A stretch of DNA of 64,000 bases from an uncultured Candidatus Saccharibacteria bacterium. Its GTDB lineage: Bacteria > Patescibacteriota > Minisyncoccia > Phycocordibacterales > UBA918. Shown piece after piece: positions 24,997 through 61,248 of the stretch. Positions within the stretch are counted from its first letter, which is position 1, and each line of letters begins with the position of its first letter. The position numbers were made by a program, and so were the translations under genes. The notes under the pieces are model-generated. The model saw nothing but the letters and a program-made list of their open reading frames with translations. It was not told where the DNA came from and did no database searches. The stretch is from positions 36,601-100,600 of the forward strand of contig CAZSOS010000002.1 in assembly GCA_964608605.1 (NCBI GenBank), written 5' to 3'.

Positions 24997-25029
<33 letters not shown>

Positions 25030-25171
25030 ATTCCCGACATAGCTACTGGGCAGTGCCGCTGGCGCGACAGCCCACAGACCAGAGGTCAGTTCATCCCGGT
25101 CCTCTCGTACTAGGGACAAATCTCTTCAAGTATCGACGCCTGCAGTAGATAGGAGACCAACCTGTCTCACG

Positions 25172-26187: not shown

Positions 26188-26420
26188 GCTCTATAATTCC
26201 TTCTTTAATGTAGATACCCGCGTATCTACGTACACAATAGGACTCTATCTTCACCCTCTTATATACTAGTCAGACTAGTATAAAGGTGGGGTGTGCAACA
26301 TTTGGTCTCTTGTTGGTTGCAATTGGAAATACTAATGATTACTCACTAGTAAGGTAACTATGGCTCGGGCTGTTTAACTCTACAATCGTTCTAATCCGTA
26401 GAGCACACTTCCGAAGAAAC
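26188..26420 (-). mobile_element. ~233-nt ORF-less insertion in 23S between GGTAGAGCGC and (G)CAATTCCTTGTCGGG (E. coli ~1917 intron site); carries an internal REP-like palindrome
   Basis: Flanking exon sequence aligns to AACTATAACGGTCCTAAGGTAGCG|AAATTCCTTGTCGGG. Palindrome TATACTAGTCAGACTAGTATA lies at 26262-26282. A 7-nt direct repeat AGAGCGC sits at the junctions. Confidence 0.5.
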
Positions 26421-26647
26421 GCGCTCTACCTTAGAACGATTATAGTTATCGCTGACATTGACGGGGGCTTACACAGTCCAGCACCCAGCACCACTCTCAC
26501 AAACTTTGTTTGTGAAGATGGTGCTGGGCACCGCCCGTGCTTAACCTTCCCGCATTGGTCAGGCGTCACCCTCTATACATGGACTTACGTCTTCGCAGAG
26601 AGCTGTGTTTTTGTTAAACAGTCGCCAGGAAATCTTTCGCTGCGGCC

Positions 26648-26836
26648 GAGCGCATCACGCTACGCGCGATGACTAAATTCAAAATTGAAAAGTCAAAATG
26701 CAAAATTACAATGCAAAGTTCAAAATTTCGCTACGAACTCTATGAGTACGTGACGTAATTTTTACTTTTTATTTGTACTTTTGATTTTTGAGATTTTCCT
26801 TTTCAATTTAGCATCACATGCAATGTGATGCGCTCG
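26648..26836 (-). repeat. AT-rich IVS-like expansion in the 23S helix-63 region (copy A of a duplicated AT-rich element)
   Basis: Inserted between the complementary arms GAGCGCATCAC and GTGATGCGCTC. Contains a 47-nt segment (26689-26735) identical to 27405-27451. Confidence 0.6.
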
Positions 26837-27374
26837 GCAGGCCTTATCCCGAAGTTACGGCCGCTTTTTTGCCGAGTTCCTTAAGGACCCCTCACTCGTT
26901 CGCCTTGGTCTTCTCGACCCTACCACCTGTGTCGGTTTGCGGTACGGAACCACTATGCTTAACCCAAACGAAGTTTTTCTCGGAAGCGTGCTCCTTACAT
27001 TTCCTTGGCCGTAGCCGCAGATTCAGACTCTACTCGGATGATATCGCGCGGATTTGCCTACGCGACGTCCTCATAGCTCCAGCACCAATCCAATAAGATG
27101 CTGTAAGTACAACGCTCCGTCCCTCCATAGGAACATAGCAGTGTGCAGGAATATTAACCTGCTCTCCATCGCCTCCGGCGTTCGCCATCGGCTTAGGACC
27201 GACTAACCCTTCGCTGATCACCATCGCGAAGGAAACCTCGGTATTTCGGCGGACGGGGTTCTCACCCGTCTTGCGGTTACTTGTGCCGGCATTCTCACTT
27301 CGCATCGCTCCAGGTAGGGTCTCCCCCACCATTCATCGCAGATACGAACGCTCTCCTACCACTCAACGCACCTC

Positions 27375-27525
27375 ACAAAAGTTCGTTGCTAAAATAAAAA
27401 TGTAAAAGTCAAAATGCAAAATTACAATGCAAAGTTCAAAATTTCGCTACGTGCTATCCTGCGCGTTGCGTGATTTTGATTTTTGAGATTTCAATTTTCA
27501 ATTTAGCATCTCACCTCTGTGAGAT
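27375..27525 (-). repeat. AT-rich IVS-like expansion in 23S helix 45 (copy B)
   Basis: Inserted in the helix-45 stem CAGCGCATCTCAC/GTGAGGTGCGTTG, the site of the classical enterobacterial and Coxiella IVS. Shares the 47-nt repeat and the GATTTTTGAGATTT motif with copy A. Confidence 0.6.
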
Positions 27526-27615
27526 GCGCTGAATCCGCAGTTTCGGTAATATGCTTGAGCCCCGATCATCTTCGGCGCAAGGACTCTCGACCAGTGAGCT
27601 GTTACGCTTTCTTTA

Positions 27616-27650
<35 letters not shown>

Positions 27651-28210
27651 TAGAGAATCCTCACCTCCTCCAGATGCACTGAGCATATATTTAGGGACCT
27701 TAACTGGCGATCTGGGCTGTTCCCCTTTTGACCAATGGAGCTTCTCCCCCATAGTCTAACTGCCGAGCTATAATCTCTGGTATTCGGAGTTTGATAGGAA
27801 CAACGAGCTTTCGCCCTGTTTGTTCCTTCCAGTGCTCTACCCCCAGAGGGACCACTCGACGCCAACCCAAAAGCTGTTTCGGAGAGAACCAGCTATTACG
27901 GAAATCGATTAGCTTTTCACTCCTTACCACAAGTCATCCGATGGTTTTGTACGGCCAACCGGTTCGGGCCTCCACGAGGTTTTACCCTCGCTTCACCCTG
28001 CTCATGGCAAGCTCTTCCCGCTTCGGGTCGTACCCCAACTCCATATTCGCGCTATTCACGCTCGCTTTCACTGCGCCTCCGCGGGTTTTCCGCTTAGACA
28101 AGGAATTAAGGTACACTCGCCGGCTCATTCTTCAATAGGCACGCCGCAACCCCGAAAGGCCGCGACTCCTTGTAAGTGTATGGTTTCAGATCTATTTCAC
28201 TCCCCTCTCC

Positions 28211-28256
<46 letters not shown>

Positions 28257-28554
28257 TTAAAAGATATTTAGCCTTACCAGTTAGTGCTGGCAGATTCATC
28301 CGAGCTATTCATGTCTCGAACTACTCAGGAACAAGATCAACGGAGTCATATACATTTCAAATACGGGACTATTACCCACTGGGGTCGAGCTTCCCAACTC
28401 GTTCTTCTATATATATGTTTTGTAACTCCGCGCAACTAAATGCGGACCTTGCCCTACAACCCCGTAAATATTGCTATCAACGGTTTGGGCTATTCCCGTT
28501 TCGCTCGCCGCTACTAAGGGAATCGCGAGAACCTTCTTCCTGGTTTCAATGGCC

Positions 28555-28878
28555 CCAGCACCACTTTTTGGTTTCAATGGATTTGAGACGACTCACATCT
28601 TTTCAATAATTCTTGTTTGCCGCGACCATGTTGTTTAAGTCGCTGCTCACGCTTGTCCGCATCGTCTTTAGAACGGTATGCTTCTGCGTATATCAAGATC
28701 CATTTCCCTGATGTTCTGTGCGTAGACTTATTGCGTGAGCTATTATGCTCGCTAAGTCGTCGCCTCAAATCATTGGTTCTTCCAATGTAGATATCTCTAG
28801 TATCACTGTGTTGTATCACATAGACACTGTACATAATCCACATTGTATCAAAACCAAAAAGTGGTGCTGGGTAGTTTT
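28555..28878 (-). mobile_element. IVS-like element in 23S domain I (E. coli ~210) bounded by 21-bp perfect inverted repeats CCCAGCACCACTTTTTGGTTT; encodes a GIY-YIG protein
   Basis: Inverted repeats at 28555-28575 and 28858-28878. The flanking rRNA aligns to GAAAAGAAA...GATTCCC..AGTAGCGGCGAGCGAA. Confidence 0.65.
28574..28843 (-). CDS. GIY-YIG nuclease superfamily protein (89 aa) encoded inside the 23S rRNA gene
   Basis: YSVYVIQHSDTRDIYIGRTNDLRRRLSEHN carries the GIY...YIG motifs with conserved Arg and Glu. Confidence 0.6.
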   Translation of the reverse strand: MWIMYSVYVIQHSDTRDIYIGRTNDLRRRLSEHNSSRNKSTHRTSGKWILIYAEAYRSKDDADKREQRLKQHGRGKQELLKRCESSQIH

Positions 28879-29150
28879 AACCAGAAAGAAAGTTCCGTAT
28901 ATTGCTTTCTTTTCCTCTCGGTACTGAGATGTTTCACTTCCCGAGGTGTGCTCTCGCATAACGCGAGTTTCCGACGTAATCGGAAGGGTTTCCCCATTCG
29001 GAGATCTCCGGATCGAAGGTTGATTGTCACCTCCCCGAAGCTTATCGCAGACATTCTACGTCCTTCATCGCTCTTTTAAGCCAAGGCATCCACCATACAC
29101 CCTTACATTCCTGCAAGGAATGCTGTACACCGCTGTACGATTCTGATCAT

Positions 29151-47722: not shown

Positions 47723-49165
47723 CTATTCCGGTAGCCTGGAAAAAAGATTTTCTGGTTTTTTGTTAGCCAAAATAGCTTCTTTAATGATGATGTTGGTCTT
47801 GGGCATGATGGGATTCAGCAGTCGGCCGATGACATATAGTTCCCTTAGAAGCTCACGGATCAAGGTCTTGGCTTTTTCCGGCTCGGTCTTCACGAGCTTA
47901 AAGGGCGCCTCGGCGGTGATGCGTTCGTCGAGTTCTCCCACCTTTTTCCAGATATGATCGCAAGCGGCCTGAAGGTTGAACGCGTCGAGCGCCTGTCGAT
48001 AATCAGGATCAAGCTCCGCCATCGTTGGCTTCTCAATCGGAGCCTCAAGATGCGTCTCGGCCATCTTGGTGATGCGGGCCACCAGGTTGCCGAGGCCATT
48101 CACCAGTCCGGCCGTATACCACTCGTCCATCTTCTCGAAGGTAACGTCAGAGTCATCGAAGGGGTGCACGTGGCGCGACAGGAGGTAGCGCGTGGCCTCG
48201 GTGCCGTAGCGAGTCACTAGATCGTAAGGGCTGATGACGTTGCCGAGCGACTTGGACATCTTCTGTCCGCCGGAATTGATGAAGCCGTGATAGACCACGC
48301 TGTCAGTAGCCTTCACGTCCGCGCTTTTTAGCATCGCCTGCCACATGATCGACTGGAAGCGCACTTGGTCCTTGCCGGCCAATTGCACCACCTCTCCTTC
48401 CGTCCAAAACTTCTTGAAGTTCCCATTTTTATCTTCCGGCCATCCCAGCGTGGAGATGTAGTTAGTAAGAGCGTCGAACCAAACGTACATGACCTGGTCT
48501 TCGTCGTCGGGAACATCCACACCCCAGTTAAGTCGGGCGCGTTCGCGGGAAATGGAGAAGTCTTCCAGGCCACCCTCAACGAACTTAACCGCCTCTTCTC
48601 GTCGCCACTCCGGCAGGATCACCCCCGGCTTTGCCAGATATTCCTTCAAGTAATCCTGGTATTTGGACAAGGCGAAGAAGTAATTCTCTTCCTCCACGAT
48701 CTGCGGTTCCATGTTGGGATGATTCGGACAGCGACCGTCGACCAGGTCGCTGTCGCGCAGGAACATCTCATCACCCACGCAATATAATCCCTGGTATTTC
48801 TTTTTATAGATATCGCCATTCTCGAGGCACTTCCGCCAGATGGCCTGCGCGGCCGCTTTATGTCCCGCGTCGGTGGTGCGGATGAAGTTGTCGAAAGACA
48901 GGTCAAGCGCGGCCCCGAGCTTTTTGAATTCACCCGCGAAATGATCGACGTAGGCTTGCCGATCCTGACCTTTCTCATCGGCCTTTTCAGCGATCTTCTG
49001 GCCGTGCTCGTCGGTACCGGTATTGAAGAAGACCTCATGACCCATTAAGCGCCAATAGCGAGCCAAAACGTCACCAGCTACCACTTCGGAAGCAAAGCCG
49101 ATGTGCGGATCGGCGTTCACGTACGGCAGCGTGGTGGTGAGATATCGAGGTCCCTTGTCAGACAT
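47723..49165 (-). CDS. metG: methionyl-tRNA synthetase (short form)
   Basis: PYVNADPHIGFA (HIGH-class) and KMSKSLGN motifs. Confidence 0.85.
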   Translation of the reverse strand: MSDKGPRYLTTTLPYVNADPHIGFASEVVAGDVLARYWRLMGHEVFFNTGTDEHGQKIAEKADEKGQDRQAYVDHFAGEFKKLGAALDLSFDNFIRTTDAGHKAAAQAIWRKCLENGDIYKKKYQGLYCVGDEMFLRDSDLVDGRCPNHPNMEPQIVEEENYFFALSKYQDYLKEYLAKPGVILPEWRREEAVKFVEGGLEDFSISRERARLNWGVDVPDDEDQVMYVWFDALTNYISTLGWPEDKNGNFKKFWTEGEVVQLAGKDQVRFQSIMWQAMLKSADVKATDSVVYHGFINSGGQKMSKSLGNVISPYDLVTRYGTEATRYLLSRHVHPFDDSDVTFEKMDEWYTAGLVNGLGNLVARITKMAETHLEAPIEKPTMAELDPDYRQALDAFNLQAACDHIWKKVGELDERITAEAPFKLVKTEPEKAKTLIRELLRELYVIGRLLNPIMPKTNIIIKEAILANKKPENLFSRLPE

Positions 49166-49228
49166 AATAAGCAAGAATAGCACCGATTTTGGGTAAAAAA
49201 AAGCGGGCGGCGCTAACGCGCCGCCCCT

Positions 49229-49669
49229 TCATCCTGGCAACATCAATCCCAGTTTCTCGCCTACCAGATAAGCGCGACGAGGCGTGCCGCGCTGTAGCAT
49301 GCGGATGTACGATCCTAAACAGCTTTCAGCCGGAGTGTAGTTGCTGACGGGTATATCGTAATCACGGGACAACGCCGTCCTGATGACCTCGCGGGCGTAA
49401 ACGCTTGAACCTCGCCCGGCCACCCATACCTTTCGTACTGATCGGAAAGACCGTTTGTGTATATGCGAGAAGATGTGATCGAAGCGAAAACCCTTATCGA
49501 TCGCCTGATCTAGTACCTCGTAATTCAGCGAGGAAAAGATGGCGGTCACTTGGCTGTCGATCACCAAAGAATTGATCTTCTTGAACTCTTCGGTGTTCAA
49601 CACGTCTACCTGTTCCTTGCCGGGCACATATAAAACGTAGACCAGCGGCGTTCTTGGTTTCAATTCCAC
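49229..49669 (-). CDS. hypothetical protein (146 aa)
   Basis: Clean ORF between terminators. No motif recognised. Confidence 0.35.
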   Translation of the reverse strand: MELKPRTPLVYVLYVPGKEQVDVLNTEEFKKINSLVIDSQVTAIFSSLNYEVLDQAIDKGFRFDHIFSHIHKRSFRSVRKVWVAGRGSSVYAREVIRTALSRDYDIPVSNYTPAESCLGSYIRMLQRGTPRRAYLVGEKLGLMLPG

Positions 49670-49709
49670 TTTTCCCTCCCCTTAGGAACTCCTGGAAGGT
49701 AAGTTTGGG

Positions 49710-51083
49710 CTAACGCAAAGCGTCTGTCAACTCACCGATGGCCACGCGTTTCTGTTCCCCAGTATCGCGGTCGCGGACGGTAACGGTGTCCAGAAGTTCG
49801 GGATTTTCGCCCAGAGTGTCGAAGTCGACGACGACGCAGTATGGCGTGCCGATCTCGTCCTGACGGCGGTAGCGCTTGCCGATGTTGCCGTTATCATCGA
49901 AGGCCACGTTGCCGAATTCCTTTTTGAGCATGGCGTATACTTCCCTAGCCTTCTCCACTAGTTCCGGCTTGTTCTTTAGAAGCGGCGAGACGGCCACGCG
50001 GTACGGCGCCAAATGGACCGGGAACTTCAAATAAGTGCGGGTCTCGCCTCCCATTTCATCTTCAACGTATGCCTCAGACAAGACAGCTACTATGGCGCGG
50101 CCCAAACCAAAAGAAGGTTCCAGGACGTGCGGGATAAAGCGGGTACCATCTGGCTCGATATATTCGAGGGAAGCGCCGCTGGCGTTCATGTGGCTCTTCA
50201 GATCATGATCGGTGCGATAAGCAAAACCGGAAAGCTCGCTGAATCCTTTGCCTGGATAGTCGTATTCGAAGTCGATGGTGCGCTTTGAATAATGAGCCAG
50301 GTCGTTCTCCGGAACCTCGAGTTCACGCACATGCTCGCGCTTCAGGCCGAGACGATCGAACCACTTCCAGATGGTCTCGCGCCACTCTTCGAAGCGTTCT
50401 TTCCATTCTGATTCCTTCACGAAGTATTCGATCTCCATCTGCTCGAACTCACGCACCCGGAAAAGAAAATCTCGCGGCGCGATCTCGTTGCGAAATGCTT
50501 TGCCTACCTGGGCGATACCAAAGGGCATCTTCGGACTCATGGTGTCCACCACGTTCTTGAAGTTGACGAAAATGCCTTGAGCGGTCTCCGGTCGCAGATA
50601 TGATCTCATGGCGCCTTCGGCGCCCACCTGCGTCTCGAACATCAAGTTGAATTGCCGCGCCTCTGACAAAGGATTGCCTTTTGGGCTTTTGATACCCTTG
50701 ACTTTGATCAGGTCATTTATGGCTGCGAGCGACAAGCCGTCAGCGTCGATACCGTTGTCTTTGAGCAGATGATCGGCGCGGTAGCGATCGTTGGTCTTCA
50801 GGTCCTCCACTATCGGATCGGCGAAACCGGCCCCGGTGTGGCCACTGGCCTCCCAGACCTTTTCATTCATCAATATCGAGGCGTTGAGTCCGTACATGTC
50901 CTCGCGGTCGGTCACGAACATCTTCCACCACTCGCGCAGGATATTCTCCCGCAGCATCACTCCCAAAGGTCCGTAATCATAGGCGCCGGCGAACCCGCCG
51001 TATATCTCCGATCCCGGGAACACGAAACCCTTTCGCTTCGCCAGCGACACGATCTTCTCCATCTTATTCTCAGTATCTGCCAT
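49710..51083 (-). CDS. glyS: glycyl-tRNA synthetase (alpha2, archaeal/eukaryotic-type class II)
   Basis: Class II motifs and the length and pattern of a dimeric GlyRS (FNLMFETQ..., RNEIAPRDFLFRVREFEQMEIEYF). Confidence 0.8.
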   Translation of the reverse strand: MADTENKMEKIVSLAKRKGFVFPGSEIYGGFAGAYDYGPLGVMLRENILREWWKMFVTDREDMYGLNASILMNEKVWEASGHTGAGFADPIVEDLKTNDRYRADHLLKDNGIDADGLSLAAINDLIKVKGIKSPKGNPLSEARQFNLMFETQVGAEGAMRSYLRPETAQGIFVNFKNVVDTMSPKMPFGIAQVGKAFRNEIAPRDFLFRVREFEQMEIEYFVKESEWKERFEEWRETIWKWFDRLGLKREHVRELEVPENDLAHYSKRTIDFEYDYPGKGFSELSGFAYRTDHDLKSHMNASGASLEYIEPDGTRFIPHVLEPSFGLGRAIVAVLSEAYVEDEMGGETRTYLKFPVHLAPYRVAVSPLLKNKPELVEKAREVYAMLKKEFGNVAFDDNGNIGKRYRRQDEIGTPYCVVVDFDTLGENPELLDTVTVRDRDTGEQKRVAIGELTDALR

Positions 51084-51101
51084 GCTGAATGTAAAAGTTA
51101 A

Positions 51102-53000
51102 CTAATTCTGCACCACGCCGCTGTTGCGCTGGCCGGAGAGCTCGGCCGTCACGGCTCCCACCGAATGCCGCAGGGTCGAGCCGGTGAAGTTGTCCTGGCT
51201 CCTAAGAGCCGCCGTCTCCACCAATGTAGGTGTTCTACCAACAAGCGACGAACTTGGCAAGAAGTTCACCTTGAAGGTGCCGGAAACCTCGCCGCCAGCG
51301 TTCACGCTCCCGGCTCGCCACTCCACGGTCCTGGTCGAGGGGTTGTAGCTCCAAGCGCCGGCACCGGCCGTCTCTCCCGCCCATTCCACGTAAGAAGGCA
51401 AGGTAGCCGTGACCACCGCTCCGGAGATGCTGTTGGCGGAGTTGACCACCTTCCAGCGGAGGTCGTAGGTCGTGGTCTGTCCCACCTTCGGCGGGACCGA
51501 ACCGGAGGCGGCACCGAGCAATTCCGCCACCAGGGTCGGACGGCTCTCGACCCGGATGACGCGCTTGATCGTGCCCGCGATCCGCTCGCGAGCGCTGTTC
51601 TCGGAAAGGCGACGCGCCGAGGCTGAGACATCGAGAGTTACCTGTGGCGTCTCCAAGCCCACGGCTTCGGGACGGATGCTGAAGGAAAGGTTGGCCGAGG
51701 AGCCAGGATTGATGCGGCGCAGCCCCGAGACCGAGGCCACGTCGAAACGAACGGTATTGGTATTGGAATCATAATAGCCGTTATTCACCCGCACGCCCCC
51801 GTCGGACAGCGCGTTGCCGCCGAGTTTCACCTCGATCAGTCCGTCAAAGACGGCGGTGTCCAAGGTATTACGGATCTCTAAGGAGACGGTGGCCTGCCCG
51901 TCGGGTCCAAGACTGACTGTCTCGTCGGAGCGGTTATCGACCAGCACTTTGACCGCCAAAAACGGATCTTCAAGAGTGAACTCGGTGTCACCGACCGCCA
52001 GTACCGAAGCCAGGCTGCTTTGATCACGCTGATCGGCCACTCCGGCCGTGAAGCGCATCACGTATTTCTCGGTCTTGGTTCCCACCACTACGCCAGTAAC
52101 CTCGATGGTGGCGCTGCCCTCAGGCTGAAGCTCGGGAATGGACCAGACGTTGCGGCCGCTCTGCGGTGATGGCGTGGAGCGGGTGAAGTCGAAGCCGGCG
52201 GGATACTCGGCCCGCACCATGAGATTGCTGATGGGGGTCGGCGAGTTGGAAGTGAGAGTGAGCCGCACCGTAGTCTCCTGTCCGGATGATATGGTCTTCT
52301 CGGCGTCGACCTTCAAGACGACCGGGGCGCTGCCGATCTTGAAACGATGCGGGGCGGCCTCTTTGTAGAAAGTGGCGCTCGATCCGGCCACCCGGTACTC
52401 CACCGAAACCCGAATGGAAGCTTCCTGGTTCTCCTCGCCGAAGACGCGGGCGCGGAGCGGCACGTTCCTGGTCTCCCCCGGCGCGATACCGGCCGTGATC
52501 GGTATGCGTTCGGAGTAGAGCTCCTTGTCCTGGCCGTCGGCCGAGCGGGTGCCCGAAGGATATTCCACCACCACCGTGGCGAATTCGATAGCCACGCTAT
52601 TTTGGTTGGTGATACCGACCTGTAGCGACAGCGCTTCCCCGCCGCCGGCCGTGAACGGCCCAGTGACGCCGACCGCGATGTTGGAGCCGGACACGGTGTT
52701 GCGGCCCAGCATGATATAGAGGCTAGACACCAGTATGGATAGTATGAAGAAAGACAGCCCGATGATGATCATGATCATCCGGAACTTGCGGCCGCTACCC
52801 CGACCTTCGGCGGCGAAGGATTCTTCGGTCGGAGGCACTGGCGGAGGTGGTGGGGGCGCGGCCGGCGGCCGCGCCCCCATTTCATCCACCACCTTCGTCT
52901 CCCGGAGAGTGGAACGACGGTATGGTCTTTGGGTTTCGCCGCGCGCGTAAAGCCGTTCGCGCAAATTGTTCATCTGTTCGTGAGAGCGCTTGTCCGCCAT
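51102..53000 (-). CDS. large membrane-anchored surface protein with a Pro-rich N-terminal region and repeated beta-sandwich-like ectodomain
   Basis: PPAAPPPPPPVPP linker, TM segment MIMIIIGLSFFILSILVSSLYIM, then about 550 aa of Thr/Val/Ser-rich beta sequence. Confidence 0.45.
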   Translation of the reverse strand: MADKRSHEQMNNLRERLYARGETQRPYRRSTLRETKVVDEMGARPPAAPPPPPPVPPTEESFAAEGRGSGRKFRMIMIIIGLSFFILSILVSSLYIMLGRNTVSGSNIAVGVTGPFTAGGGEALSLQVGITNQNSVAIEFATVVVEYPSGTRSADGQDKELYSERIPITAGIAPGETRNVPLRARVFGEENQEASIRVSVEYRVAGSSATFYKEAAPHRFKIGSAPVVLKVDAEKTISSGQETTVRLTLTSNSPTPISNLMVRAEYPAGFDFTRSTPSPQSGRNVWSIPELQPEGSATIEVTGVVVGTKTEKYVMRFTAGVADQRDQSSLASVLAVGDTEFTLEDPFLAVKVLVDNRSDETVSLGPDGQATVSLEIRNTLDTAVFDGLIEVKLGGNALSDGGVRVNNGYYDSNTNTVRFDVASVSGLRRINPGSSANLSFSIRPEAVGLETPQVTLDVSASARRLSENSARERIAGTIKRVIRVESRPTLVAELLGAASGSVPPKVGQTTTYDLRWKVVNSANSISGAVVTATLPSYVEWAGETAGAGAWSYNPSTRTVEWRAGSVNAGGEVSGTFKVNFLPSSSLVGRTPTLVETAALRSQDNFTGSTLRHSVGAVTAELSGQRNSGVVQN

Positions 53001-53047
53001 CGTCAAATTGTAAAATTTAAATCTCAAAATGTAAAATGACATTGGCG

Positions 53048-53079
53048 GCAATTTCCCTTCGGGAAATTGCCGCCATCTT
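53048..53079 (-). terminator. terminator hairpin (GGCGGCAATTTCCC-TTC-GGGAAATTGCCGCC) after the recO-like gene
   Basis: Perfect 14-bp stem embedded in an AT-rich element. Confidence 0.6.
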
Positions 53080-53105
53080 TCATTTTAAGATTCGACCTTT
53101 AACTT

Positions 53106-53672
53106 TTACAGGTGGCTGGCCTGCTTGGCCTTATCGATCGATACCAGAGCTTCGGGAGGCAGGGATGGCAAGGTCCACCACTCGGGATCCGCCAGATAGG
53201 CCGAGAATCTCTGCGGTGAAGCGATATAGCCCAGACGGTCGAGGAAGCGCAGCGAGAATACCGAGAGAAAGTCGCTACTTGAAAGTCCTTCCTCGGAAGA
53301 CATCGTGAGTGCCGTCTTCACGTCATCGAACACCGCTTCGTGCGCCACTTCCCCATGGACGAATTGCCGCACCAGCTTCACGATGACGCTGACGCGGTGG
53401 CGGGCTTCCTTGGTATCGCAGGCCGAGAAGAAGTTCCGCTCTCCCTCGGCGCTGCCGATCTTCCAGCCGCCCTTCCCCTTGATGAGAGACACCCGGATGA
53501 AGGAAAAATCCTGGAGCGCGAAGCGCTGCCGCGAACGCTCCTCGCGCACGCTCTTGGCAGAGGCCCACAACATCCCCGCCTCCCGCGTGAAAAGCAAGAA
53601 GGATTTGTCGGAAGTGTTATTCGCCCGCGAGCCGCAGACGATCGCCTCGGTGGTATAGGTTTTATAGGACAC
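53106..53672 (-). CDS. recO: putative DNA repair protein RecO (short form)
   Basis: N-terminal OB-fold-like region (AIVCGSR...SFLLFTREAGMLWASAKSVREERSRQRFALQDFSFIRVSL) resembling RecO. Weak. Confidence 0.4.
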   Translation of the reverse strand: MSYKTYTTEAIVCGSRANNTSDKSFLLFTREAGMLWASAKSVREERSRQRFALQDFSFIRVSLIKGKGGWKIGSAEGERNFFSACDTKEARHRVSVIVKLVRQFVHGEVAHEAVFDDVKTALTMSSEEGLSSSDFLSVFSLRFLDRLGYIASPQRFSAYLADPEWWTLPSLPPEALVSIDKAKQASHL

Positions 53673-53760
53673 GATGTATAGGGTACAGGGTTTAGGGTGT
53701 AGGGTCTAGTAGAAAAAGCGGAAGCAAACTCGCACCCTTCCTACCGACTAAACGACTCGA

Positions 53761-56700
53761 TTACAAAACCTTCAGCTCCACGGTGAAGGAGTGGTCGCCG
53801 GCTTTTATTTCAATACCGGAAGCATCGCCGAATTCTATGGAGTCGGTGCCAGTGACGCGCCGGATCTCGGCTTCGAAAGCTTTGATGATCGATTCGCCAG
53901 CATCAGAGGTCTGGACCTTGAGGGCGATGCGATCGCCAGGCTCCAGACCTTCGGCCTTGCGCCGCTCCTGTACCGCGCGGATGAATTCACGGGCGTCGCC
54001 TTCGGCCTTAAGTTCCGGAGTGATAGTCGTATCCAACACTGCCCGTTCTATCTGATCGGCCGCGCAAACTATTTCCTTCACATTTATCTCATCTGCAACT
54101 ACGGCGGCATACTCATCCTCCAGCTCGATGTTGATGGTGAGCTTCGGCAGCGGCTGACGCACTTTCACGTTCGCTTTAGTACGGGCTTCGAGGGCCAAGG
54201 TAACGAACTCGCGGACCAAACTCATTTCACCCAGGACTACCGGGTCGACTTCACGCACCTCCGGCCAATTTGATAGATGCACGCTTTCCTCTCCACCCTC
54301 GCCTTTCACCTTGCTCCAAAGGTAGTCAGCGTAAAAAGGCATCGAAGGGGCCATTACCTGTGCCAGCGTTTTCAACACATAGCGCAAAGTGGCCAGCGCG
54401 AGTTTCCTATCCGCCACGTCCTCTCCTTTTAGGCGGTCACGCGAACGGCGCAAGTACCACACCGACAAATCATCAATGAAGTCTGTTATCGGTCGAGTCG
54501 CCTTATCAAGCTCGTAGTTCTTGAAGCCTTCGGTGGATTCGTTTATCAACTGATGCAGGCGCGCCAGAATCCAGCGGTCGAGTACATTTTTCGAATCAGC
54601 ACTCGCTTCCGTGCCATCAGCGAACATTTCGTACATCTGAAGCACATTATGCAGACGGCCCAGGTTCTTGCGCATCTGTTCGGTCACTTCCTTTTCGGAG
54701 AAGTTAAGGTCCTCGGCCCGCATGATTGGCGCGGAAAGTAAGTAGTATCGCACAGCGTCGGCCCCCACCCGATCGACCAATTCCATCGGATCGGGATAGT
54801 TCTTCAGGGATTTCGACATCTTCTTGCCGTCCTCGGCCAATACCAAACCGTTCACGATCACGTTCTTGTAAGGCGAGTGTCCAAAGAGCGCTGTGCCGAG
54901 CACGATAAGCGAATAGAACCAGCCGCGGGTCTGGTCTAAACCTTCAGCGATAAAATCAGCGGGAAAACAGTTGCTAAAATTTTCTTTATTCTCGAACGGA
55001 TAATGATGCTGGCCGTACGGCATCGAGCCGGACTCGAACCAGCAGTCGAAGACGTCCTTCACTCGCTCTAAGCGGATACCATTCTCATCGAACACCTCGT
55101 AGTCATCGATATACGGCCGGTGGTAGTCAAGTTCATAGAAGTCGTTGTGTGGCAATTTAGTGAACTCCAGTGTTAGCAATTGGCCCGGAGTAGTACTTTC
55201 TTCCGCGATCTGCCGCGAAGCGGCATCATCGGCGCCGATCGCCACCATGCGCAGATTCTTGAGGCCAATAGCGTGCGTGACTACCAAGACCTTTTCATCG
55301 TTTACGTTAGCTTCCACTTCATACAAGAATTCTCCGAACCGCTTCTTGGAGTCCTTCTGACTCTCGCCTCCTTCTGGTACGGCCGTGAACCAATCCGGAG
55401 ATGACTCCTCGAAAGCCCGATACTCGCCGTCCGGCTGGTCGCTGAACACGCCGAATTTATATTCCCCTAAACGCTCGTCGGTAATGACCGCTTCATCGGG
55501 CAAGCCTAATTCCTTGGCCACTATCCGCGCGGTTTCGAGACAACGCTTAAATGGCGAGCTATATATCTTAGTGATACCTTCACCGGCAAGCTTCAAAGCC
55601 GCCTCTAATGACTGCTCTTTACCCTTCTCGGTCAAAGCGTATTCCTTTGAGTTATCGGAAGAGAATATCCCGGCCACGTTATGCTCGGCCTCGCCATGAC
55701 GCAACGCGAAGTACGTATTGCCGCTCTTTTTGCCATGAGCGGTTAAGTCAGTGAGTGAACCGAATACTTTGTATTCCTTAGTTTCCGGATTGCGCCAGAT
55801 CGGCAGGGGCGCGCCCCAGTAGCGCTGGCGGCTGATGGCCCAGTCGCGCGCGCCTTCGAGCCACTTGCCAAAACGGTTAGCACCCACGTGTTCCGGTACC
55901 CACTTCACTTTATTGTTCTCGGCCACTAACTTGTCTTTCAAGTCGGTGACTCGCACAAACCACGAAGTGGTGGCGTAGTTAAGGAGCGGCGTGTCGCAGC
56001 GCCAGCAGTGCGGATAACTGTGGGTGATGTTTTCTTTTCGGAAAAGTACGCCTTTGGCACTCAAAGCCCGAACCACTTCGATATCGGCATCGAGGTGCGT
56101 GATCTCGGCGTCATCGTCGTCTTTCGGCTTCACCAGACGGCACTCGAAGTCGGAAATAAAGTCCATGAACTTACCTTCCTGGTCGACGTGGTGCGCGATC
56201 GGGATGTTATGTTCCTGCGCCAATTTCATATCGTCCTCGCCGTAGGCCGGAGCCAGATGCACCGCGCCCGTACCTTCGGTACCCACTTCTACATAATCAG
56301 CATGATAGATCTTCCAGGCCTGCCCGAATGATTCGTTCAGGCGGGTGTTCTCCTTCTTCTCCACTGCCCGGTCCTTCCAGTAGTCGAAAGGCGGGTTATA
56401 TGAGCGACCAACTAGCTTGGCACCTTTGAACTCTTCAACGATTTCGTACTCTTCGGTGGCCAATTGCGCGATCCTCTCTTTAGCGAGTACGACGAATTCG
56501 TCACCCACTTTTACCTTGGCGTAAACCACATCCTGGTGAACCGCGGCGGCGAAGTTGCCCGGCAGCGTCCAGGGGGTGGTGGTCCAGACCAGGAGCGAAG
56601 TGTTCTCCTCGTCAGTAAGCGGTAGCTTCACCGTCACCGCGATATCCTTGATGTCCTTGTAGCCTTGATTGACCTCAAAGTTCGATAGCGTGGTGCCACA

Positions 56701-57285
56701 GCGCGGACACAGATGCATGGTCTTGAAGCCCTCATAGACCAGGCCTTTTTTATTAAGCTCGCTGAAGACCCACCAAACGCTTTCGGTATAGGTGGCGTCC
56801 ATGGTGCGATAGTCATTCTCCATATCGGCCCAGCGACCCAGGCGAGGGATGATGCGCTTCCAATCGTCGCGATACTCCAAGACCGCCTCGCGGGCTGCTT
56901 CGTTGAAGTTCTTGACGCCGTACTCCTCGATATCCCGCTTAGTCGCGAGCCCGAGTTTCTTCTCGATCAGGTTCTCAAGCGGCAAGCCGTGACAATCCCA
57001 GCCCCACTTGCGGGCCACGCGGTAGCCATTCATGGTCCAGAATCTAGGAATGGCGTCCTTGATGGTGCCAGCTAGTATGTGTCCGTAGTGCGGGAGTCCG
57101 GTGGCGAATGGCGGACCGTCATAGAAGACGTAGTCGCCGTTCGGGGCTTCCTTCTCTACCGATCTATTGAAAATATCGCGCTCCTCCCAGAAGGCTTGGA
57201 TCGCCTCCTCGCGAAGCGCCACGTCGCTCTTCTCCGGGGCAGGCTTCGCCTGCCCCGTTTCTTTATGCAAATCTCTTTTCTTCAT
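53761..57285 (-). CDS. ileS: isoleucyl-tRNA synthetase with an in-frame ~200-aa histidine-phosphatase (PGAM-like) domain insertion
   Basis: PHYGH, the CP1 editing domain and KMSKSLKNY are present. Between WRNPETKEYKVFGSLTDL and LDYHRPYIDDY lies a block with the FALRHGEAEHN and VVTHAIGL motifs (roughly aa 517-715). Confidence 0.85.
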   Translation of the reverse strand: MKKRDLHKETGQAKPAPEKSDVALREEAIQAFWEERDIFNRSVEKEAPNGDYVFYDGPPFATGLPHYGHILAGTIKDAIPRFWTMNGYRVARKWGWDCHGLPLENLIEKKLGLATKRDIEEYGVKNFNEAAREAVLEYRDDWKRIIPRLGRWADMENDYRTMDATYTESVWWVFSELNKKGLVYEGFKTMHLCPRCGTTLSNFEVNQGYKDIKDIAVTVKLPLTDEENTSLLVWTTTPWTLPGNFAAAVHQDVVYAKVKVGDEFVVLAKERIAQLATEEYEIVEEFKGAKLVGRSYNPPFDYWKDRAVEKKENTRLNESFGQAWKIYHADYVEVGTEGTGAVHLAPAYGEDDMKLAQEHNIPIAHHVDQEGKFMDFISDFECRLVKPKDDDDAEITHLDADIEVVRALSAKGVLFRKENITHSYPHCWRCDTPLLNYATTSWFVRVTDLKDKLVAENNKVKWVPEHVGANRFGKWLEGARDWAISRQRYWGAPLPIWRNPETKEYKVFGSLTDLTAHGKKSGNTYFALRHGEAEHNVAGIFSSDNSKEYALTEKGKEQSLEAALKLAGEGITKIYSSPFKRCLETARIVAKELGLPDEAVITDERLGEYKFGVFSDQPDGEYRAFEESSPDWFTAVPEGGESQKDSKKRFGEFLYEVEANVNDEKVLVVTHAIGLKNLRMVAIGADDAASRQIAEESTTPGQLLTLEFTKLPHNDFYELDYHRPYIDDYEVFDENGIRLERVKDVFDCWFESGSMPYGQHHYPFENKENFSNCFPADFIAEGLDQTRGWFYSLIVLGTALFGHSPYKNVIVNGLVLAEDGKKMSKSLKNYPDPMELVDRVGADAVRYYLLSAPIMRAEDLNFSEKEVTEQMRKNLGRLHNVLQMYEMFADGTEASADSKNVLDRWILARLHQLINESTEGFKNYELDKATRPITDFIDDLSVWYLRRSRDRLKGEDVADRKLALATLRYVLKTLAQVMAPSMPFYADYLWSKVKGEGGEESVHLSNWPEVREVDPVVLGEMSLVREFVTLALEARTKANVKVRQPLPKLTINIELEDEYAAVVADEINVKEIVCAADQIERAVLDTTITPELKAEGDAREFIRAVQERRKAEGLEPGDRIALKVQTSDAGESIIKAFEAEIRRVTGTDSIEFGDASGIEIKAGDHSFTVELKVL

Positions 57286-57464
57286 GGTGGGCTTGGTGAA
57301 TCAGACCAATATGGCTAAAGCCATACAGCCTTCGCTCGCTCGGTCATGAATGAAACTGCTCTTCGTTTCGTCTCATTCACGACACTCGCTCGCTTGGCTG
57401 TAATGACGCGGATATCAGCCGCGTTTATTGATACTACCATCGACAAATCGAAAAAGAAACCGCC

Positions 57465-57740
57465 TCAGCTTGGCTGAGGCGGTGGTCCTAAATTGACGAT
57501 GATGGTGGGCAGGCTCGGTTCGGCGATCGGAGCTTCCGGATCGTCTTTCAGCGATCCCCGCTCCGGCTGCTTATGGCCGCGACGGGCGATCAGCTTCCGT
57601 TTCCGGCCTTTGTGGATCAACACCGCTTCCACCTCACCATACTGACCCACCCAATCCCGGATATCCGAGAAGGTCGTACCCGAAGTGATCATCAGAGTAT
57701 GGCCGCGATCCCGGCAATAAATGACGCTGTCGATTCGCAT
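57465..57740 (-). CDS. hypothetical protein (91 aa)
   Basis: ORF downstream of ileS. No motif recognised. Confidence 0.3.
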   Translation of the reverse strand: MRIDSVIYCRDRGHTLMITSGTTFSDIRDWVGQYGEVEAVLIHKGRKRKLIARRGHKQPERGSLKDDPEAPIAEPSLPTIIVNLGPPPQPS

Positions 57741-57845
57741 CGGAACCCTCCTAAAGGAACTGCCGACTATAACTACACTAATTCCGGGAAACTTTCAATG
57801 GCCAAAAAAGAAAACGGCGGCCAGAGCCGCCGGATTCCCCTTATA

Positions 57846-58004
57846 TTATAGATGACGCTTGGCGCCGAAGTACCAGCGATTGATCGCAATCATGCCCAGA
57901 CCGATGATGATGCCGGCGATGCCGACGGAACCGACGGTCGACGCGATGCTAAAACCGATATTCACCGTTGTCATGTCTTCCTCCCAGGCCAACCTGGGAA
58001 TCAT
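57846..58004 (-). CDS. small membrane protein (~52 aa) whose start overlaps the stop of the upstream gene
   Basis: The start MIPRLAW overlaps the Tag-Ogt stop by 4 nt. TM segment IASTVGSVGIAGIIIGLGMIAI. Confidence 0.3.
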   Translation of the reverse strand: MIPRLAWEEDMTTVNIGFSIASTVGSVGIAGIIIGLGMIAINRWYFGAKRHL

Positions 58005-58756
58005 GCTATCACCCCTTCCCGCTTTAGAATAGCCGCCTTGCTGCGTCCGCGAAGCCCATTGTAGCCACCCAGTCCAGAACGGGCGACCACCCGATGGCAC
58101 GGGACGCCCTTGTCCTGGTTCTGTTTCATCAAAGCGCCGACGGCCCGAGCGGCGCGAGGATTACCGGCGTGCTTGGCCACTTCCCCATAGGTCATGGTCT
58201 GCCCCTTAGGGATAGCTTTAACGATCGCCAATACTTTGGCTTTGAAGATATCTTTGTTCACGGGACAAAGTTTATCATGCGGACTCGGTAAGTGACCGAT
58301 GCTCTGTAGAAATTCCTTCAAGACTTCTCCACCGATGAATTTGAAACCCTGTTGTTTAAAGTGCTTTACTTGCTCCTTTTCGATTAAAGCCGACCATTCA
58401 GTCTTTGCTAACCAAGCCGTGAACGAGCCGTGTTCTTTTTGAATACCTTTGATGACCTTGGCGTTATGGATGACCGCCTCGATCTTGAGCCGGTTGCGCA
58501 CGATACCGGCGTCCTGCAAGAGTCTCTCCACATCACGCTTTCCAAATCGCGCCACTTTCTCTACCTCAAAATTCTTGAAAGCTTTATTAAAAGCCGCGCG
58601 TTTCTTCAGCATCAACTCCCACGACAAACCGGCCTGATTGATCTCTAGTGCCAACCTTTCCAAAAGTACGTTATCATCCGTTACCGGAAAACCATATTCC
58701 TTGGCGTGGTAATGCTTATGAATCGGGTTGCCTGGAGCGAATTTGCAATACGACAT
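58001..58756 (-). CDS. fusion protein: DNA-3-methyladenine glycosylase I (Tag) N-terminal domain plus methylated-DNA-protein-cysteine methyltransferase (Ogt/MGMT) C-terminal domain
   Basis: The N-terminal part aligns to Tag (YCKFAPGNPIHKHYHAKEYGFPV, AGLSWELMLKKRAAF). The C-terminal part carries the MGMT active site VPCHRVV within MTYGEVAKHAGNPRAARAVG. Confidence 0.65.
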   Translation of the reverse strand: MSYCKFAPGNPIHKHYHAKEYGFPVTDDNVLLERLALEINQAGLSWELMLKKRAAFNKAFKNFEVEKVARFGKRDVERLLQDAGIVRNRLKIEAVIHNAKVIKGIQKEHGSFTAWLAKTEWSALIEKEQVKHFKQQGFKFIGGEVLKEFLQSIGHLPSPHDKLCPVNKDIFKAKVLAIVKAIPKGQTMTYGEVAKHAGNPRAARAVGALMKQNQDKGVPCHRVVARSGLGGYNGLRGRSKAAILKREGVIA

Positions 58757-58757
58757 T

Positions 58758-59111
58758 TTAATTTTTGGACTGAGCGGAATGATAAAAGTATCTACAGAGT
58801 CCTTGCTCATTCAGTTCTATTAGATAAGCGCCCGCAGATTCTTTTTCGAAATGTGAAAAATACCACCTGACTCCATATCTCTTTCGTTCAGAGTCCATCG
58901 AAAAAATTTCATAAGTCAGTTGCATATTTTGCAACGGCAAAATTTCTTCCCACGCCTTCCTCAAATCCACGCCCTTACTTAGTCTCTCAAACGGAGTTTC
59001 CCAATACTCAACGTCATCAGTAAAAAGGTTGAAAACTTGGTCAATGTCTTTCGTCAGCCAAGCTGACTTGAATTTCTCCATCCAATCCTGAATATCTTTT
59101 GTGTGTTCCAT
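58758..59111 (-). CDS. NTF2/SnoaL-like fold hypothetical protein
   Basis: Size and the alpha+beta pattern (WMEKFKSAW..., YEIFSMD...RYGVRWYF). The start was chosen at MEHTKD. Confidence 0.35.
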   Translation of the reverse strand: MEHTKDIQDWMEKFKSAWLTKDIDQVFNLFTDDVEYWETPFERLSKGVDLRKAWEEILPLQNMQLTYEIFSMDSERKRYGVRWYFSHFEKESAGAYLIELNEQGLCRYFYHSAQSKN

Positions 59112-59113
59112 AC

Positions 59114-60829
59114 TCACATCTTCTCCGGTGCTTTGATGGCGAGGAGCCAGAGGCCACTCTTGAGGGTCTGCTTCACCGCTGAGGCGAGGAGGCATTTGTA
59201 CGGCGCGTGCGGGTCGGACGGATCGGCAATCTTTTCGTTACCATAGAAAGAGTTGAAGCTGGCCGCTAGCTCCGTGAGGAAAGTGGCCACCTGATGCGGC
59301 TCCCGCGTTTCAAAGGCCTCTTCCACTACTTCGGGAAAACGATAGAGAATTTTCTCGACCGCAAAAGCTTCAGCCGGGACATTTTCAGCTTTTACTTCAC
59401 TAGCTACTCCAGCATTCCGGGCCTTCTCTAACACGGAAGCGATACGCGCGTGGGTGTACTGGAGATACGGACCGGAAGCGCCTTCAAACGACAATGCCTG
59501 GGTTTTGTCGAAGATAGAATCCTGATAAATACTGCCCTTGAGGGTCGCGTACTTGATAGCCGCGATGGCGATATCGCGCGCCGACTCTTCGTCGGCCTCC
59601 CGACCAGACTCAGTCACCTTTTCTTTGGCGGCTTCAGTGATCTCATCGATAAAGTCTTTAGCAGCGATCACGTCGCCGGTCCGCGACGACATCTTGCCGG
59701 TCGAAAGTCGCACCATGCCATGCCCGATATGTTCGGTCTTCTCTGCCAGATCGGGATAGACAAAGCTCATGGCTTTGAGGAGCACCTTGAAGTATTCGTT
59801 TATCTCCTTGGCGGTGGAGATGACCGAGTGGTCGTACTTCACGTACTCATCTTTTAGCTTGGCTAGCGCCAACTCTTTGGCCTCATAGGTGGGGAGACCT
59901 TGTGAGTTTAGAAACACTCGTGAATGCAAACCATACTCTTCGCCCTTAAACACTCGCGCGCCATCGCTCTCGGGAAATACTTCGGGATTATTCAACACCA
60001 ACTCCTTCCCCACCGGCGCGGCCTCGCTTTCGAAGAAGTAGTGGTCGAACTTGGTGTCGACCATGGCGTAGATGGTCTCAAAGTAATCGAGGGATACTTG
60101 GCGACCCCGGTCGTAGAGCGCGTTTATCTCAGCGTCACTCCGTTCATAGACAGCTTTGTTAATGACTTTGATCTCAGCCTTGGCCTCCTCATTATCCTTA
60201 TTGGCCGTGGCACCCAGAGCGTAGGCCTTGCCTAAATCTTTGGCAGTAAATTCATCAGCGGCAGAAATACCGAGCTGTTGCATGCCATAGATAGCGCAAG
60301 CCACATGAAGACCGACGTCTCCTTGATAGTTCACCCGACGCACGTCCGCCCCTTGGGCCATAAATAGGCGAGCGATCGATTCGCCGACGGCATTGGTGAA
60401 CAGGTGTCCGATATGAAATTCCTTGAAGGGATTCGGGTCGGTGTACTCGACCAATACCACCTTGTCTTTCCAATGGTCGTTACTCCCCCACTCATCACCT
60501 TCCTGGACGGCACGGGCGGTTTCCGCGGCGAAGAAATCGCGAGAGAGATGGAAGTTGATGAAGCCGGGACCGGCGATATCGACACGATCGACGTATTCGA
60601 TCTGACCTTCGAGTTTGGCGACGATATCTTCGGCTAGTTGTCGTGGATTTTGCCCGGCGGCTTTAGCCAGTACCATGGCGACATTGGTAGCATAGTCACC
60701 ATGAGACAAATCGCCCGGATGCTCCACGGCAACCTGCCCGACTAATTCATTCAGGCGGGAATCCGCGCTCGGCAAACCCAGCTCGTTCACCACCTCTTCG
60801 ATCGCCGTCCTGATAACTTCTCGCATAGA
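59114..60829 (-). CDS. argS: arginyl-tRNA synthetase
   Basis: Class I HIGH-like HIGH motif (FHIGHLF), the anticodon-binding domain, and the C-terminal ...GLWLLAIKAPEKM. The start was chosen at MREVIRTA; the 105-aa upstream ORF extension is Arg-rich GC noise. Confidence 0.85.
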   Translation of the reverse strand, partial: SMREVIRTAIEEVVNELGLPSADSRLNELVGQVAVEHPGDLSHGDYATNVAMVLAKAAGQNPRQLAEDIVAKLEGQIEYVDRVDIAGPGFINFHLSRDFFAAETARAVQEGDEWGSNDHWKDKVVLVEYTDPNPFKEFHIGHLFTNAVGESIARLFMAQGADVRRVNYQGDVGLHVACAIYGMQQLGISAADEFTAKDLGKAYALGATANKDNEEAKAEIKVINKAVYERSDAEINALYDRGRQVSLDYFETIYAMVDTKFDHYFFESEAAPVGKELVLNNPEVFPESDGARVFKGEEYGLHSRVFLNSQGLPTYEAKELALAKLKDEYVKYDHSVISTAKEINEYFKVLLKAMSFVYPDLAEKTEHIGHGMVRLSTGKMSSRTGDVIAAKDFIDEITEAAKEKVTESGREADEESARDIAIAAIKYATLKGSIYQDSIFDKTQALSFEGASGPYLQYTHARIASVLEKARNAGVASEVKAENVPAEAFAVEKILYRFPEVVEEAFETREPHQVATFLTELAASFNSFYGNEKIADPSDPHAPYKCLLASAVKQTLKSGLWLLAIKAPEKM

Positions 60830-60882
60830 TACGGGAAACAATAACAAAAAAGCGGGGTGCTCGCCATCGGCGAGCACCCCTT

Positions 60883-61248
60883 TCATTTGGGCCAAATGAC
60901 CAAGTACACCCGGCCGGAACCGCGCCACCATTCGATGGCGTCGCATTCGTACGACTGCCCGATCTGACAGAGAACGCGCATCAAGCGCGGGATGAACAGA
61001 TCGGACCAGCCGCACTCGCCGCGTTGCTGGAACGGAACGAGGTGAAAGATCTCCGCCACGGCCGCGCCATACAGCACGCCGGCCCAATAGACCTCGCTGG
61101 CCGCCCTTTCCGAAGCACAGACCGGCAAGTTGACCACTTCCCAATCTTCGTAGGCCGATCCCGAGTCTCTCACTCCTACCGCGCCCGCGGAAGCGGGAGC
61201 GAACACCAGCAAAAGCAGAATCATCAGCACCCTTCTCACTGCCGGCAT
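60883..61248 (-). CDS. secreted Cys-containing hypothetical protein
   Basis: Signal peptide MPAVRRVLMILLLLVFAPASAGA. Confidence 0.35.
   Translation of the reverse strand: MPAVRRVLMILLLLVFAPASAGAVGVRDSGSAYEDWEVVNLPVCASERAASEVYWAGVLYGAAVAEIFHLVPFQQRGECGWSDLFIPRLMRVLCQIGQSYECDAIEWWRGSGRVYLVIWPK

Follow-up and report, generated by a model that had tools for sequence, protein, structure and literature searches.

Aminoacyl-tRNA synthetases (aaRSs) are among the most conserved enzymes, and the additions known in them are mostly terminal, non-catalytic and mostly eukaryotic. Synthetases of class Ia also carry lineage-specific insertion modules, such as the leucine-specific domain of LeuRS, which are idiosyncratic insertions in surface loops. 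For isoleucyl-tRNA synthetase (IleRS), an INS subdomain has been described in ARD2 of IleRS2 (bioRxiv 10.64898/2026.02.03.703510), and the NCBIfam model NF040702 (ileS_w_GNAT, N-acetyltransferase domain-containing) provides a precedent for an IleRS with an extra enzymatic domain. Here we analyse an IleRS gene located in a stretch of 64,000 nucleotides (hereafter the window; positions 36,601 to 100,600 of contig CAZSOS010000002.1, assembly GCA_964608605.1) from an uncultured Candidatus Saccharibacteria bacterium (GTDB lineage Bacteria; Patescibacteriota; Minisyncoccia; Phycocordibacterales; UBA918), whose product holds a histidine-phosphatase domain within its catalytic body. Like the modules of LeuRS and IleRS2, the insert occupies a surface loop in the catalytic or tRNA-binding body of a synthetase, but whereas those modules are small and non-enzymatic and aid tRNA binding or catalysis, it constitutes a complete second enzyme.

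A histidine phosphatase in the CP3 loop of IleRS

The host gene and its domains (CP, connective peptide) are arranged as follows:

53761..57285, reverse strand, complete IleRS gene, an uninterrupted open reading frame (ORF) of 1174 aa plus stop, assigned to type 2 (eukaryote-like), with a DUF5915 C-terminus
55738..57285, reverse strand, IleRS aa 1-516: first half of the Rossmann fold, CP core, CP1 editing domain, CP2, CP2-3 linker WAISRQRYWG and start of CP3
57079..57090, reverse strand, HYGH (the HIGH motif), aa 66-69
55132..55737, reverse strand, nested histidine-phosphatase (His_Phos_1) domain, aa 517-718 (Pfam PF00300, AlphaFold2, Foldseek)
53761..55131, reverse strand, IleRS aa 719-1174: rest of CP3, second half of the Rossmann fold, anticodon-binding domain and DUF5915
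54808..54822, reverse strand, KMSKS, aa 822-826

The whole protein scores 890 bits against the NCBIfam ileS model TIGR00392 (cut-off 621.4), in a match that is split in two by the insert. The initial annotation, made from the sequence alone, had described an IleRS of 1174 residues with canonical motifs, and every motif that it quoted was found in its place within an unbroken reading frame; the motifs located include WAISRQ (482-487), WRNPETKEYKVFGSLTDL (497-514), LDYHRPYIDDY (719-729) and CWFESG (748). H66, G68, H69, K822, S824 and K825 are invariant across 69 homologues, the Zn-knuckle cysteines are present, and the motifs WTTTPWT (234-240) and GTGAVHLAPAYGEDD (338-352), which from established knowledge of IleRS we take to belong to CP1 editing, are present in the translation and conserved. 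With HIGH, KMSKS, editing motifs and Zn-knuckle cysteines intact, the IleRS half looks functional, and because these motifs are intact we infer that it aminoacylates tRNA-Ile. The best relatives in the Protein Data Bank are the IleRS2 of P. megaterium and the human and yeast IleRSs, IleRS1 being far weaker, and PF19302 (DUF5915) is matched by Pfam at the C-terminus. As judged from these comparisons, the host enzyme is of type 2, the mupirocin-resistant kind, with a type-2 C-terminal organisation and no IleRS1 zinc-binding domain. It has the full domain set in common with the IleRS2 of Priestia megaterium (8C8U/8C8V), the yeast and human cytoplasmic enzymes and that of T. thermophilus (1ILE), namely a Rossmann fold with HIGH and KMSKS, CP1 editing, CP2/CP3, anticodon-binding and DUF5915-type C-terminal domains (E ~1e-215 to 1e-200 by sequence, 1e-62 by Foldseek). 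In the solved IleRS structures, however, the CP3 loop is empty, whereas the window protein has ~196 residues of a second enzyme there.

Subdomain names were transferred by sequence alignment from the boundaries of yeast IleRS (CP2, 420-458; CP3, 459-526; CP2-3 linker, 453-465; PMC7955072), where the CP2-3 linker lines the pocket for the tRNA CCA end and reveromycin (PMC7955072). The break in the alignment falls between yeast residues 488 and 499. With human IleRS (9W01) the aligned blocks stop at 489 and resume at 498, an 8-aa gap, and the gap is ~9 aa at the same site of an insert-less relative; the ordinary link of ~40 aa assumed in the initial annotation must accordingly be corrected to ~8-10 aa, while its estimate of ~200 extra residues (55141..55737, aa 517-715) comes close to the ~196 measured relative to the ordinary loop. 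By this alignment the insert sits in the middle of CP3, in a surface loop 23-30 (about 25) residues past the CP2-3 linker. Its GC content of 0.52-0.53 is the same as that of the rest of the gene, and recent horizontal acquisition was rejected for want of a GC anomaly.

The Pfam family PF00300 (His_Phos_1) matches aa 528-694 far beyond chance (E=3.5e-30; 105.5 bits against a cut-off of 21.7; profile positions 4-170 of 194), and it lies between the two stretches into which the PF00133 match of the window protein is broken, which bears out the proposed nesting in the catalytic region of IleRS. The claim of an in-frame, complete phosphatase fold is likewise confirmed, and the AlphaFold2 model of the insert alone (predicted local distance difference test, pLDDT, 96.9; predicted template modelling score, pTM, 0.93) marks it as an independently folding domain. 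In the model of the full-length protein, confidence is highest for the insert (pLDDT 86-96) and the IleRS core is patchy, with pLDDT <50 around HIGH, KMSKS and the CP2-3 regions. The modelled insert has the order of secondary structures typical of the family and a helical cap as in small-molecule phosphatases. Foldseek relates it with probability 1.00 to members of the PspA, PhoE and CobC type (template modelling score, TM, 0.75-0.78; root mean square deviation, rmsd, 2.4-3 Å; identity 24-28%), the best superpositions being PspA 4IJ6 (TM 0.78, rmsd 2.4 Å), the riboflavin-pathway phosphatase HFP 9MMH, PhoE 1H2E, GpgP Rv2419c and CobC. True cofactor-dependent phosphoglycerate mutases (dPGMs) superpose worse, with an rmsd of 6-7 Å against the 2.4-3 Å of the phosphatases. 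The best solved relatives by sequence are PhoE (1.8e-10), the short phosphoglycerate mutase (PGM) of S. pombe 1FZT (1.9e-9), PspA and CobC.

Both catalytic histidines named in the initial annotation are present, H530 in the RHG motif (529-531, within YFALRHGEAEHN, aa 525-536) and H671 in VVTHAIGL (668-675). Together with R529, R581 and E608, they align with the catalytic residues of PhoE. The active-site and junction elements of the insert are:

55693..55701, reverse strand, RHG motif with R529, H530 (predicted phospho-acceptor) and G531, with R529 and H530 invariant
55543..55545, reverse strand, R581, putative second phosphate-binding arginine, from invariance
55462..55464, reverse strand, E608, predicted general acid/base, aligned with the catalytic Glu of the PhoE DERLRE motif (1EBB/1H2E)
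55273..55275, reverse strand, H671, putative second catalytic histidine, in VVTHAIGL, from invariance
55141..55152, reverse strand, P712-H713-N714-D715 motif at the C-terminal junction of the insert, from homologue alignment

We compared the window protein with its 120 best full-length homologues (64-100% identity, 1150-1218 aa), which represent independent clusters at 90% identity and include one identical NCBI protein on a 190-kb contig. PF00300 is present in all 120, and R529, H530, N536, T552, G555, R581, E608, E641, R649 and H671 are invariant among them. The identity of the insert to the window protein averages 41%, as compared with 87% for the N-terminal Rossmann region, 74% for editing, 83% for the CP2/CP3 flank, 77% for the second catalytic half, 72% for the anticodon-binding and 54% for the C-terminal domain. 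In a wider set of domain instances, comprising distant, tandem and stand-alone ones, R529 and H530 are kept in 190/190, R581 in 200/200 and H671 in 193/193; at the position of E608, 189 of 201 instances have E and 8 have D. Since the catalytic residues do not vary in an insert that otherwise diverges fast, catalysis is under selection. The length of the insert is confined to 200-207 aa. Its net charge is acidic (-3 to -20), which is weak evidence on RNA binding, the remainder of IleRS being acidic as well. Pairwise identities of insert and core correlate weakly, with a Pearson coefficient of 0.27, a value not used as evidence since the insert is probably saturated and the range of the core is narrow.

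At the C-terminal junction, F708, P712 and N714 are invariant among the 120 homologues, H713 occurs in 119, and the next residue is D or E. The PHN(D) motif is found only in copies embedded in IleRS, stand-alone homologues ending ahead of it. Its role may be to close over the pocket of the phosphatase or to fasten the domain to CP3. The conserved HN had raised the idea of an intein or mobile element, which we rejected: there is no Hint or intein match in Pfam, H713-N714 is followed by D/E and not by C, S or T, the phosphatase fold accounts for the whole insert, and there are no flanking repeats.

Among described phosphatases, PhoE/YhfR (1EBB, 1H2E), PspA (4IJ5/4IJ6), CobC (6E4B, 6NRU), GpgP Rv2419c and HFP 9MMH share the fold, the size and the R-H-N-R-E-H set of the insert, but they are free proteins without PHN(D), whereas the insert is nested in another enzyme and carries this motif. 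Membership in CobC (TIGR03162, 77 bits against a cut-off of 162.9), PspA (NF045917, 64.6 against 350) or SixA (TIGR00249, 33 against 74.5) was rejected, and no specific NCBIfam equivalog cut-off is reached by the insert. Its best NCBIfam match is the Rv2228c-type RNase H/acid phosphatase (NF005567, E=1.5e-25; 90 bits against a cut-off of 326), which is also a CobC-like histidine phosphatase joined to a nucleic-acid enzyme, but end-to-end and to another partner.

Distribution, further copies and genomic neighbourhood

A scan of GTDB species genomes gave 154 relatives, with 80 loci retained for analysis. All 80 are loci of Patescibacteria species that match the whole insert together with both flanks, and they include Kaiser-, Nomura-, Zambryski-, Adler-, Jorgensen- and Moranbacteria as well as Paceibacteria; fragments labelled Uhr- and Vogelbacteria were also found. 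When the insert alone was searched against 1.84 billion cluster representatives, 610 matches were obtained at E<=1e-10. Of the 50%-cluster representatives that this search newly brought in, the top 143 include 80 with IleRS flanks. The architecture is thus not rare; it is lineage-wide and fixed over a large part of the Patescibacteria. The initial annotation had considered that related IleRSs might show a mere linker without the RHG and histidine residues, and the relatives instead carry the same domain with its catalytic residues invariant. Database names in NCBI, UniRef and JGI are generic ("isoleucine--tRNA ligase", "class I tRNA ligase family protein"), and some fragments are called "histidine phosphatase family protein, partial".

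In other lineages within the candidate phyla radiation (CPR), His_Phos domains are found at other positions of IleRS, that is in the CP3 hairpin, after CWFESG..PY and after KMSKS in the stem-contact region, the CP3 site being by far the commonest in the sample. A protein of 1419 aa (P0303, with members on contigs of up to 1.06 Mb) has an ordinary short CP3 loop but two copies elsewhere, the first between CWFESG..PY and FP.ADFIAEG, the second between the catalytic and anticodon-binding domains. In P0278 two further positions are occupied, in P0348 one copy stands at the site used in the window and another after KMSKS, P0310 and P0374 have two tandem copies each, and P0241 has at least four. Since the copies within one protein are just 23-36% identical to each other, they appear to be old; none has lost the RH of the RHG motif (the G is occasionally A).

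GNAT-bearing IleRS fragments were seen as well (P0111 and P0331), the GNAT of P0111 lying at another site, ahead of the WAISRQ region. P0331 (1066 aa, JGI) has an IS200-like Y1 transposase domain at aa 340-461 in the editing region, His_Phos at 680-854 and GNAT at 935-1063, and may be either an IleRS with three inserts or a chimera of assembly or gene calling.

The closest stand-alone relatives are proteins of 184-194 aa that are 37-41% identical to the insert and retain the same catalytic residues. In six of six loci examined (L081-L083, L085-L087) their gene adjoins ArgRS and/or an insert-less IleRS. It is found directly downstream of ArgRS, with its start overlapping the ArgRS stop in L081 (8331..13835), and it is convergent with the insert-less IleRS in L081, L082, L083 and L087; in L085 only ArgRS is visible, as the contig ends there. 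In L086 the gene is located directly downstream of IleRS with ArgRS convergent, so that the link to aaRSs persists after rearrangement. A canonical cofactor-independent phosphoglycerate mutase (iPGM) is encoded at the end of L081. Among the 80 insert-bearing loci, 49 have ArgRS as the direct upstream neighbour of IleRS, in the same orientation. A single phosphatase subfamily thus occurs in two settings, inside IleRS or as a gene next to IleRS and ArgRS, which is a Rosetta-stone pattern. No second His_Phos paralogue was found in the window, where a hidden Markov model built from the inserts matches the IleRS ORF only. The neighbours of IleRS in the window are:

59114..61144, reverse strand, ArgRS (Pfam), 1.8 kb upstream of IleRS, part of the conserved neighbourhood of ArgRS, His_Phos and IleRS
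58001..58810, reverse strand, repair fusion in an ORF of 269 aa, 3-methyladenine DNA glycosylase I (PF03352) joined to an O6-methylguanine methyltransferase DNA-binding domain (PF01035)
53106..53672, reverse strand, RecO-like gene, downstream of IleRS in 57/80 related loci
49710..51083, reverse strand, class II aaRS with HGTP anticodon domain
47723..49183, reverse strand, MetRS

Four aaRS genes thus lie on one strand within 13.5 kb (47723..61144, reverse strand), with a DUF11 protein, the RecO-like gene and the repair fusion scattered among them. In ArgRS no Pfam domain begins before aa 110, which leaves an N-terminal extension.

The window is CPR-like in that its 16S rRNA gene stands unlinked and its 23S rRNA gene bears inserted sequence, and the CPR origin guessed in the initial annotation is confirmed by the homologues and the GTDB loci. 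Its RNA genes include:

5933..6006, tRNA-Ile(GAT) gene
7925..9384, reverse strand, 16S rRNA gene
24505..24578, reverse strand, tRNA-Ser with anticodon ACT (ARAGORN), with an unusual A at position 34 and a weak Rfam match (38 bits)
24879..29116, reverse strand, 23S rRNA gene, 4238 nt as against a 2925-nt model, with ~1.3 kb of inserted sequence

The 16S gene is separated by ~15 kb from the 23S-5S genes (24314..29116, reverse strand), which have two tRNA genes between them. Two sub-threshold matches to group I introns lie inside the 23S gene (25219..25466 and 26219..26386), in which no ORF >=150 aa is present; the inserted sequence is typical of CPR rRNA insertions.

Possible functions of the embedded phosphatase

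The explanation that we favour, and hold to be somewhat more probable than its negation, is that of a bifunctional enzyme carrying on IleRS a small-molecule phosphatase that acts in trans, a possibility raised in the initial annotation, and is functionally tied to aaRSs. A complete housekeeping IleRS of type 2 hosts a small, probably catalytically competent histidine phosphatase of ~200 aa, the whole being vertically inherited, and the phosphatase would fold and act as a module of its own within the IleRS chain. Going by the alignment to PhoE and by what is known of the family, phosphate would move to H530 to give a phospho-enzyme, R529, R581, N536 and H671 would hold the phosphate, and E608 would serve as general acid/base. 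The substrate would most likely be a small phosphomonoester, nucleotide- or metabolite-like, as for PspA, PhoE, CobC and GpgP. The domain derives most likely from a stand-alone phosphatase gene, and nesting would give the phosphatase the same stoichiometry and expression as IleRS. In insert-less relatives the stand-alone gene sits between ArgRS and IleRS, and because of this placement the phosphatase function seems tied to aaRSs. We infer that the embedded domain is neither a glycolytic mutase nor a passive spacer.

Several points weigh against this explanation or limit its reach. Gene neighbourhood in reduced genomes may mirror shared ancestry rather than selection, and the six stand-alone loci, with 47-69% mutual identity, probably represent one clade. 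All NCBIfam equivalog cut-offs are missed and therefore no known specificity can be transferred, so that the substrate proposed above is a guess from the fold class. The core is modelled with too low a confidence to settle how the domain is turned towards the active site of IleRS. Repeated insertion near the catalytic domain of IleRS, moreover, exceeds what co-expression needs and leaves room for a role in cis.

Such a role could be that of a repair or immunity module placed by the aminoacylation site, which would strip phosphates that block charging, either a 3'-phosphate or 3'-pyrophosphate left on the CCA end of tRNA (toxSAS) or phospho-Ser, -Thr or -His on the synthetase (compare HipA/HipT acting on GluRS/TrpRS). 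Both kinds of blocking mark occur in bacteria, as pyrophosphorylation of the tRNA CCA end (PMC11559606; bioRxiv 10.1101/2021.04.30.441581) and as phosphorylation of aaRSs (PMC6581861, PMC8262856), and the insertion lies near the CP2-3 linker, which in yeast IleRS helps to form the pocket for the CCA end and reveromycin (PMC7955072). The occurrence of His_Phos at several IleRS sites (CP3 loop, CP3 hairpin, after CWFESG..PY, and post-KMSKS/stem-contact), the translational coupling of a stand-alone relative to ArgRS with IleRS adjoining, and the existence of protein and phospho-His phosphatases in the superfamily, among them SixA, to which the insert has a weak match, all fit this idea. However, the helical cap is of the small-molecule type and the structure is nearest to PspA, PhoE and CobC rather than SixA, an acidic insert disfavours RNA binding, and a site that accepts two to four bulky copies speaks against a precise geometry to the active site. 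Neither a toxSAS nor a HipA gene was seen, in an analysis that included no search aimed at either, and there is no evident reason why IleRS alone should need such a function. We regard an action in cis at the aminoacylation site as rather unlikely, and as improbable the boldest reading, in which the nested phosphatase serves aminoacylation as a built-in device for repair or immunity; if true, it would explain the wiring of this subfamily into, or its placement next to, IleRS and ArgRS in a lineage that lives episymbiotically and faces host and phage toxins.

It is very unlikely that the domain is the cofactor-dependent phosphoglycerate mutase "missing" from Parcubacteria (Jaffe et al. 2020, PMC7304191), fused to a housekeeping gene. 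The insert does match the archaeal short dPGM NF038349 (E=1.8e-22) and the short PGM 1FZT named above, but it stays far under the cut-offs (80.2 against 225 bits for NF038349, 24.2 against 81.7 for TIGR01258). In dPGMs the distal carboxylate or phosphate is bound by the equivalents of K100 and R116/R117 (E. coli numbering), and when the insert is aligned to the S. pombe enzyme with HMMER, it lacks the substrate-binding segments NK and RR(S)Y, whose positions are taken up by gaps or insert states. A mutase would also have to be reconciled with the poor superposition on true dPGMs and with the canonical iPGM in a genome that has a stand-alone relative (L081), and it gives no account of why a glycolytic enzyme should be placed repeatedly in or beside IleRS. 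Highly improbable, too, is a catalytically irrelevant appendage, be it a pseudo-enzyme with a structural or tRNA-binding role or a selfish or neutral insertion in a permissive loop. IleRS seems to accept domains readily, as multiple copies are tolerated, other loops take up inserts, one relative has an IS200-like Y1 transposase domain inside its IleRS and NCBIfam holds an IleRS-with-GNAT model; the insert, besides, changes at a much higher rate than the core. Against this stand a catalytic set that is invariant in 190-200 instances at ~40% background identity and is kept by the stand-alone orthologues, the tightly held length and the unremarkable GC content. The idea of a parasitic insertion, raised in the initial annotation, finds little support, as the window protein has no Hint/intein or transposase signature and no flanking repeats. 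A chimera of assembly or gene calling that fused two genes, for which only the general risk of metagenome-assembled genomes can be adduced, has a negligible probability and was already refuted, in agreement with the initial annotation: the order IleRS-N, His_Phos, IleRS-C recurs in the 120 independent clusters and the 80 species genomes, on contigs of up to 0.9 Mb, with IleRS sequence on both flanks in one reading frame.

Novelty and significance

Full-text literature searches, which covered Jaffe et al. 2020 and a 2026 survey of 96,219 IleRS sequences, returned no description of an IleRS with a nested phosphatase. The earlier claim of an undescribed architecture stands to this extent, with the correction that such proteins are common and already deposited in NCBI, UniRef and JGI records. 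No NCBIfam model comparable to NF040702 matched the His_Phos form, and the window protein takes its name from the generic ileS model alone. The two parts are each of a well-known family; what is unusual is that a whole second enzyme lies within the catalytic body, its recurrence at other sites and the aaRS neighbourhood of the phosphatase when it is unfused. Annotation pipelines mislabel these genes, as is seen from the split PF00133 match and from fragments with names such as "histidine phosphatase family protein, partial", and metabolic reconstructions of CPR bacteria may wrongly count the domain as a "phosphoglycerate mutase" or miss it. The anatomy of the protein and its evolutionary pattern would surprise a specialist, while no long-standing question is directly resolved by them. 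An uncharacterised subfamily of phosphatases gains a concrete functional context, and the combined pattern of fusion and neighbourhood suggests that tRNA charging in organisms with minimal genomes is linked to a phosphate-dependent step that has so far gone unrecognised.

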